A stretch of 11,808 nucleotides of DNA from a virus (taxonomy: Monodnaviria > Loebvirae > Hofneiviricota > Faserviricetes > Tubulavirales > Inoviridae), in IMG/VR virus record IMGVR_UViG_2563366858_000001; one strand, given 5' to 3'. The notes under the pieces are model-generated. The model searched no databases and was not told the DNA's origin. It saw only the letters and a list, made by a program, of their open reading frames with translations. The position numbers and the translations under genes are program-made. Positions 8,823 to 8,853 of the stretch are shown here, in pieces. Position 1 is the first letter of the stretch. Each line of letters starts with the position of its first letter.

Positions 8823-8853
8823 AATATTACCCTAGGTTAACTAGGGTAATATT
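8823..8853. repeat. Perfect 13-bp inverted repeat with 5-nt spacer (AATATTACCCTAG gttaa CTAGGGTAATATT)
   Basis: Base pairing verified position by position (8823-8835 against 8841-8853). Lies 3 nt after the stop of the membrane-protein gene and 67 nt before the AT-rich gene. Confidence 0.7.

Follow-up and report, generated by a model that had tools for sequence, protein, structure and literature searches.

Judged from sequence comparison, the perfect inverted repeat at positions 8823–8853 of the window (the whole stretch of 11,808 nt that was analysed) belongs to one cargo cassette of a filamentous prophage and not to the phage backbone. Its role is tentatively read as that of a stem-loop ending the phage transcript where the cargo's own transcription unit begins, paired with a candidate promoter at the cassette junction.

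Geometry and predicted folding of the inverted repeat

The repeat and its immediate neighbours are as follows.

8823–8853, unstranded: inverted repeat/stem-loop with 13-bp perfect arms and a 5-nt spacer
8397–8819, plus strand: 140-aa membrane-protein gene of the conserved backbone (phrog_4174), with its stop 3 nt upstream of the repeat
8854–8920, plus strand: AT-rich leader of 67 nt from the repeat to the start codon of the cargo gene, specific to the cassette
8921–10024, plus strand: 367-aa cargo gene of unknown function (phrog_17621), encoding two transmembrane (TM) helices and two β-sandwich domains

The left arm (8823–8835, AATATTACCCTAG), the spacer GTTAA and the right arm (8841–8853, CTAGGGTAATATT) form a 13+5+13 palindrome whose arms are 100 % complementary, which bears out the description of a perfect 13-bp repeat between two genes given in an earlier note on this DNA. 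All 13 stem pairs are of the Watson–Crick type, four of them G-C, with no G-U pair and no mismatch. The left arm begins 3 nt past the TGA stop codon (8817–8819) of the 140-aa ORF, 67 nt separate the right arm from the ATG (8921) of the AT-rich 367-aa ORF, and both flanking genes are on the same strand. When the whole window was shuffled with dinucleotide frequencies preserved, a perfect inverted repeat of at least 13 bp (loop of 3–10 nt) appeared in 3 of 1000 cases, and shuffling the AT-rich segment by itself produced one in 3 of 5000, so that the repeat represents more than chance.

The isolated hairpin has a predicted folding energy of −17.2 kcal/mol as RNA and −10.7 kcal/mol as DNA. It was the dominant predicted RNA structure of the intergenic region in both the minimum free energy and the centroid fold, and the initial 73 nt past the stop codon of the 140-aa gene gave a z-score of −6.1. 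The observation in the earlier note that no clean T-tract follows the repeat also held: there is none 3′ of the stem on either strand (the tail being CAAATACTAAATTTT on the plus and ATATCAATAATATG on the minus strand), and a terminator scan of both strands did not flag the site. Without a U-tract on either strand, the repeat lacks a defining feature of an E. coli intrinsic terminator; the base of its stem is AT-rich and it should not be filed as one. An Rfam covariance-model search gave no match at the repeat with E ≤ 1.

The prophage and its attachment sites

The window contains a filamentous prophage with genes for Rep G2P (6630–7682, minus strand), G5P (6301–6618), Zot/pI (2673–3698) and the secretin (1429–2673), and with an HTH_3/XRE gene (7854–8300) that is divergent from rep. 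One prophage end carries a perfect E. coli dif site (530–557), and the prophage adjoins hipA (10202–11581). It is a prophage of the CUS-1/YpfPhi type, integrated at dif. Phages of this family integrate at dif through XerC and possess an RstR-like regulator, beside which the accessory ORFs have been reported to differ between phages (PMC4266046; PMC7307601). The window agrees with the accessory region of CUS-1, YpfPhi and UPPhi in its Rep/G5P/Zot/secretin genes, its RstR-like regulator, its integration at dif and the presence of a variable slot beside the regulator. The exact boundaries of the slot, the empty site and the boundary hairpins are not described in either of these two papers, and the word ‘hairpin’ is absent from both texts. 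A megablast search of the whole window against phages gave no match.

The same element exists as a circle of 9,565 bp in a record from strain TUM14759 (L001); by comparison with it, the ends of the prophage lie at 544 and 10125 and share a core of 16 bp. This circle, annotated as an untypable plasmid, is presumably the phage replicative form. In the chromosomal copy of the same strain (L056) the XRE, 140-aa and cargo genes are frameshifted; the separate circular copy is intact. The right end of the prophage lies within a second structured element.

10031–10130, minus strand: CTX-type attP forked hairpin with dif-like XerC/XerD arms, a bulged centre and a GC-rich stem extension

Folded as single-stranded DNA, the minus strand of 10027–10132 gave a long forked hairpin (z = −7.2), in which an asymmetric bulge separates a GGTGCGCATAA duplex arm from a TTATGTTGAAA arm, reproducing the geometry of a CTX-type attP. 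This hairpin, which includes the prophage end at 10125, forms the right boundary of the cargo slot.

The repeat belongs to one of several exchangeable cassettes

The content of the slot was surveyed in the window and in loci L002–L004, L022, L025 and L026–L047, and the edges of the cassette in the window were defined by comparison with other cargo variants and with phages in which the slot is empty.

8819–10026, plus strand: cargo cassette of about 1.2 kb with 30 % GC

The sister prophages L002, L003 and L004 share 99.2–99.4 % identity with the window until about 8821 and again from about 10022, with other genes in between. Homology between cargo variants stops at about 8818–8821, just at the end of the 140-aa gene, and the repeat starts 4–5 bp inside this left edge. 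The slot is empty in L044 and L045, which read ...TGGTAAGCCTTAAATTGG|TTCGCACAATGACG... (junction TGGTAAGCCTTAAATTGG|TTCGCAC). Every cassette begins right past the stop codon of the 140-aa gene and finishes a few bases before the attP block. The GC content of the cassette is 28–38 %, compared with 43–50 % in the flanks.

At least nine alternative cargos were found in the slot across 22 IMG/VR loci and further E. coli loci. They include a PD-(D/E)XK nuclease (PADLOC Aga_Helical-REase, 1.3e-34) together with DUF6953, an STM4504/CBY_0614 protein and several small ORFs, as well as the 367-aa protein.

A 44-bp stretch containing the repeat was present in 18 records, representing 17 of 5426 complete E. 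coli genomes, with all copies 100 % identical. In all 18 of these records it was linked to the 367-aa cargo gene (1:1), and it was found nowhere else. Among plasmids and deposited phages nothing similar to the repeat and leader was detected except the phage's own replicative form. A pattern scan of genome contigs returned five matches whose taxa are scattered and whose spacers differ in length, roughly as many as we estimate would arise by chance; taken together, the genome, viral and metagenome scans retrieved the same phage and otherwise nothing but unrelated matches at chance level.

In 10 copies of the cassette none of the 31 repeat positions varied, compared with 50 of 1,827 columns overall (less than 3 % variation for the cassette as a whole); since only about 0.85 variable positions would be expected in the repeat, selection on it cannot be shown. 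The cassette of L022/L033 starts with a similar TAATATTTTACC, a likeness that hints that part of the left arm may be junction sequence.

Upstream, the region held in common by different phage backbones starts at a further hairpin.

8329–8357, plus strand: hairpin I3 with a CTTTATT tail, past the regulator gene, at the left edge of the backbone-shared block

The shared block comprises I3, the 140-aa gene, the repeat and the cargo. The stretch 8319–8358 is a recombination breakpoint that joins the CUS-type, UPPhi-type (L005) and L052 backbones to this block, and is 90 % identical to an unannotated part of phage I2-2 (X14336, 2666–2706).

The 367-aa cargo protein and its relatives

The family of the 367-aa protein is small: among 5.8 billion proteins it formed 21 clusters, each of them annotated as hypothetical. 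The conserved start of the family, M-[RS]-x-K-M, makes it probable that translation begins at the first ATG (8921) and not at the annotated M5. Invariant motifs of the family are R33-x-R35-Q-L-Y38 and N63-x-G-K-x-K-E-K70. The AlphaFold model (pLDDT 81.5) has TM helices at residues 6–33 and 150–171 and two β-sandwiches, giving a predicted topology of TM helix, β-sandwich, TM helix, helices and second β-sandwich.

The earlier note had suggested that the repeat keeps a potentially toxic cargo silent. This gained no support: the cargo is a protein with two TM helices and two β-sandwiches, and searches of Pfam, NCBIfam and PADLOC gave no match at all, and hence none to a toxin, an enzyme or a defence family. 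Comparison of the model with the PDB retrieved generic Ig/CBM-like folds with TM-scores below 0.2, and the idea of a toxic cargo was rejected.

Relatives of the cargo gene were also encountered outside phages of this type. In Proteus mirabilis (L016, NOWB01000013.1, 5231–7846) a unit of about 1.9 kb occurs in tandem copies beside a dif-like site; it contains about 740 bp of non-coding sequence, a 357-aa cargo homologue, an attP-type forked hairpin and nothing else, and is possibly a minimal Xer-integrating element with a single gene. The left half of the attP block with its GC-rich stem follows genes for SIR2-family, ‘abortive infection family’ and STM4504 proteins and for homologues of the 367-aa protein, as seen in L023 (the E. 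coli 144 chromosome, beside hipA), L024 (plasmid pEco_23-2678-2), L014 and L015. In these four loci an ISNCY-type (HTH_23/28/32) gene precedes the cargo and a conserved ...ATGGACATTTCTAATGAGCCAGTGATTAGACATTTTCACTGAG follows the attP half-block. Defence-like cargo is apparently common to the phages and a non-phage element.

Hairpins at the 5′ edges of other cassettes and homologues

A comparison of 5′ edges covered 12 loci with a cassette, representing about 10 distinct types, together with the empty slot of L044. Four types with leaders of 20–28 nt (L003, L040, L046 and L047) had no hairpin, and these cassettes look coupled to the 140-aa gene. Leaders of intermediate length (67 nt in L002 and 56 nt in L022) were also without a hairpin. 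Among the five types with leaders of 86–137 nt, four possessed a stable stem-loop right past the stop codon, the sequences of which were mutually unrelated: the window (z = −6.1), L042 (AAACCGTGG-GAAA-CCACGGTTT; z = −5.3), L034/L041 (z = −2.4 to −2.6) and L037 (z = −3.1). The fifth, L025, had a weak imperfect hairpin.

Hairpins were also present upstream of some homologues of the cargo gene. In L015 this was a canonical terminator, ATGGCTCAG...CTGAGCCAT followed by T7, and in L018 and L020 a CGGCTCA...TGAGCCG hairpin just past the upstream ORF. The repeat itself was absent upstream of the homologues with 76, 45 and 36–42 % identity, and L014, the 76 %-identical homologue, had no comparable hairpin upstream. 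Recurrence of a hairpin in position but not in sequence is the pattern expected of a nucleic-acid structure and not of a site for a sequence-specific protein. An RNA structural element acting on the AT-rich gene, which the earlier note had offered as one option, is compatible with the comparative evidence and favoured by it.

A conserved two-hairpin element, CCGYGGGAAACCACGG TAAAGTTCGGGTGTCACAGAACCCCGAACCGC, heads the cassettes of L034, L037, L039 and L041 (in the first 60 nt or so past the stop of the 140-aa gene), and the same element follows the ISNCY-like gene of the non-phage loci L014 (about 5830–5885) and L015 (about 5590–5650). Rfam searches with the hairpins heading other cassettes, including this element, gave no match.

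The same core as that of the repeat was found past an ORF in L048, an unrelated metagenome contig, where ATACCCTAG-TTAAC-CTAGGGTAT is followed by T7 and forms a canonical terminator, with a TTGACA promoter just downstream of the T7 tail. Near-identical TTACCCTAG...CTAGGGTAA stem-loops occur between genes in unrelated phage contigs (L011–L013 from IMG/VR, and L048); the viral matches of the L011–L013 type represent one unrelated lineage with a 6-nt loop. The likeness of these stem-loops to the repeat is probably due to convergence or chance.

A candidate promoter at the cassette junction

A putative promoter element directly abuts the stem.

8817–8825, plus strand: perfect extended −10 motif (TGnTATAAT) TGATATAAT, spanning the backbone/cassette junction, with putative promoter activity

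TGNTATAAT occurs once on the two strands of the window, with 0.6 occurrences expected for the whole window. TGATATAAT takes its TG from the stop codon of the 140-aa gene and overlaps the start of the left arm by its last 3 nt. The motif lies immediately 5′ of the stem and points toward the cargo gene, and the predicted transcription start (about 8831–8835) falls inside the left arm. A scan of the plus strand of the leader for a −35/−10 promoter pair found none; the extended −10 motif alone was found. TGATATAAT probably drives the cargo gene, and an independent cargo promoter at this position is consistent with the 101-nt cargo leader. Because the predicted start lies inside the left arm, transcripts from the junction promoter would not contain the hairpin; RNA reading through from upstream would.

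A proposed stem-loop at a transcript boundary

In the reading tentatively preferred here, the repeat would act through its nucleic-acid stem-loop rather than through sequence-specific binding of a protein. Read-through RNA from the XRE and 140-aa genes would fold a hairpin of −17 kcal/mol 3 nt past the stop codon; this hairpin would pause or limit read-through, and the upstream message would gain a protected 3′ end. The cargo gene would be transcribed from its own promoter, the putative extended −10 TGATATAAT abutting the stem. Such a hairpin would behave in the manner of a terminator-like or REP-like intercistronic stem-loop without a U-tract. We infer an action at the RNA level, an effect on read-through and stability, and promoter activity.

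Several observations weigh against this reading. The stem has no U-tract and the effect on read-through is a conjecture; transcripts from the cargo's own promoter would not carry the hairpin; and the L014 homologue, 76 % identical, has no comparable hairpin upstream. Perfect Watson–Crick pairing suits symmetry at the DNA level, or a recent mutational origin, no less than selection at the RNA level, and the invariance of the 31 positions in 10 copies leaves no variation in which covariation might be seen.

Three kinds of known element resemble the repeat in part. Like Rho-independent terminators, it is a stable stem-loop directly downstream of a stop codon and between genes on the same strand, and canonical examples exist in L048 (same core with T7) and upstream of the L015 homologue, but the repeat itself has no U-tract and an AT-rich stem base. 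Hairpins of the REP type could block 3′–5′ exonucleases and uncouple upstream from downstream expression. The mRNA-stabilizing stem-loops of this type (malE–malF), which the repeat would resemble in its action, are likewise stable intercistronic hairpins without U-tracts, but they form a dispersed family, whereas the repeat is single-copy and specific to its cassette (17 of 5426 E. coli genomes); membership of a dispersed REP-like family was rejected on this ground. Operators that overlap promoters, such as that of trp for TrpR and those of CTXphi RstR, also have dyad symmetry over a −10 element, but the repeat has no cognate regulator, is dissociated from the RstR-like XRE protein, is far longer and is a single site. 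The repeat also contains AGGGTAAT, a resemblance to the I-SceI site that was judged coincidental.

Alternative readings of the repeat

An operator for a dimeric regulator other than XRE, from the host or elsewhere, that would cover the −10/+1 region of the cargo promoter and gate the cargo is a credible but unlikely alternative. Its attractions are the perfect dyad symmetry and the overlap with the only extended −10 motif of the window, in which a bound protein would occlude −10 to +20. The inner CTAG-N5-CTAG core is in addition reminiscent of CTAG operators such as the trp operator. GTTAACTAG is common to the repeat and trpO, but the CTAG–CTAG spacing is 9 bp in the repeat and 8 bp in trpO, and a TrpR operator was rejected on account of both the spacing and the half-site. 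More generally, the only protein encoded by the cassette is a membrane protein and not a DNA-binding one, and the repeat is found with three different regulator modules. No further copies, and no half-sites above chance, exist in the window or phage, and no copy of the 44-bp stretch lies outside the cassette in the 5426 E. coli genomes. At 31 bp, with 26 perfectly symmetric positions, the repeat is also far longer than typical HTH operators.

It is rather unlikely, although to be taken seriously, that the repeat is without function, having arisen at the DNA level, for instance when template switching made a quasi-palindrome perfect or as a by-product of the recombination event that brought in the cassette, and being carried along in a young, near-clonal cassette. 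The start of the repeat 4–5 bp from a recombination junction, the absence of the repeat from the closest homologue (76 %, L014) and the similar TAATATTTTACC of the L022/L033 cassette, which hints at junction sequence in the left arm, would all suit such an origin; moreover, all known copies are identical and the cassette has less than 3 % variation, too little to demonstrate purifying selection. Hairpins recur here in other, independent cassettes and also ahead of homologues, which argues instead for a selected stem-loop. The shuffles (3 of 1000) make an origin by chance unlikely, although a mutational mechanism may have produced the repeat.

An improbable reading combines regulation with exchange: the repeat would be a DNA-level switch (a host-factor operator or a supercoil-driven, ColE1-like 13+5+13 cruciform) on the −10/+1 region of a promoter assembled at the junction, gating a mobile cargo, and boundary hairpins would be the functional 5′ ends of cassettes exchanged among dif-integrating elements. 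If this were true, the exchanging elements would be the CUS/Ypf and UPPhi phages, the ISNCY-linked SIR2/Abi elements and the 1.9-kb tandem element of Proteus, and the cassettes, always finishing at the same Xer-type attP hairpin, would constitute a cassette system built on Xer sites.

A role in DNA structure, either as a hairpin of the single-stranded genome (for packaging, as a minus-strand origin or as a Rep site) or as a cruciform driven by supercoiling at the promoter, is very unlikely. Hairpins are functional in a single-stranded DNA phage such as this one, as the attP fold shows, the perfect Watson–Crick pairing (−10.7 kcal/mol) suits DNA, and the 13+5+13 arrangement in AT-rich flanks matches the classical ColE1 cruciform. 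A packaging or origin hairpin would be conserved in all functional variants of the same backbone, but sister phages with other cargo and phages with an empty slot do not possess the repeat, which is therefore unlikely to be an essential element of replication or packaging. An episomal form of this variant exists and is silent on any need for the repeat.

Highly improbable, too, is a recombination site for insertion or exchange of the cassette, whether Xer/dif-like, attC-like as in integrons or a transposon end, even though the repeat lies at the left edge of the cassette in a hotspot adjoining an Xer-type attP. The repeat has no similarity to dif or attP above background: the best match to dif in 8790–8885 has 13 mismatches in 28 positions, and 117 of 500 random windows were as good; Xer sites have 11-bp XerC and XerD arms with a centre of 6–8 bp, which the repeat lacks, and the real sites are the dif at 530–557 and the attP at 10031–10130. 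Integron attC sites are imperfect palindromes of 57–141 bp at the 3′ end of a cassette, with R″/L″–L′/R′ cores (GTTRRRY) and extrahelical bases. The repeat has GTTAACT, which does not fit this core, and is a 31-bp palindrome without extrahelical bases at the 5′ end of its cassette. The other cassettes have no left-end sequence in common, no matching copy lies at the right end, and the repeat is absent from dispersed locations.

The operator role for the phage's own repressor, put forward in the earlier note, has next to nothing left in its favour.

7854–8300, plus strand: gene of the XRE/RstR-like repressor, rejected as the repeat's partner

That reading drew on a dyad-symmetric palindrome lying about 520 bp downstream of an HTH_3 repressor gene, and was rejected because repressor and repeat dissociate in both directions. 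The identical XRE protein (WP_000527682.1) occurs in L002, L003, L004 and L025, which carry other cargo and no repeat. In the opposite direction, strain REF2 has a UPPhi-type prophage (L005) in which the identical repeat accompanies an unrelated 60-aa regulator with its own TGAGTTCA-type repeats; the structural genes of this prophage are different, yet the 140-aa gene, repeat and cargo are identical and homology resumes exactly at I3 (8329–8357). In a metagenome contig (L052) the rep/XRE region is about 80 % identical to that of the window, with near-identity from about 8320 onwards, so that the phage regulator modules accompanying the repeat are of three different kinds. The half-site search proposed in the earlier note found no extra half-sites beyond chance in the window or phage, and none related to the repeat above chance in the rep–XRE control region. 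Four of the eight copies of TGAGCA in the window (7724, 7753, 7802 and 7865) are in or just beyond the divergent region (7683–7870), which also contains a 10-bp palindrome, TCAGATCTGA, at about 7757–7766; these are likely operators of the RstR-like XRE protein. In the UPPhi-type phage this region has the TGAGTTCA-type repeats in their place.

Significance

Taken alone the repeat is an ordinary kind of element and a modest one, in an interesting location. It serves as a landmark, marking to the base pair the start of a swappable cargo gene in the dif-integrating filamentous prophages of one family, which occur in pathogenic E. coli and in Yersinia. With the repeat placed in the cassette and not in the repressor circuit, expression of the cargo would be set by the promoter of the cassette and its boundary hairpin rather than by the lysogeny repressor. 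The slot beside attP, with at least nine alternative cargos of which some are defence-like, is a hotspot of inovirus accessory genes that is worth study.
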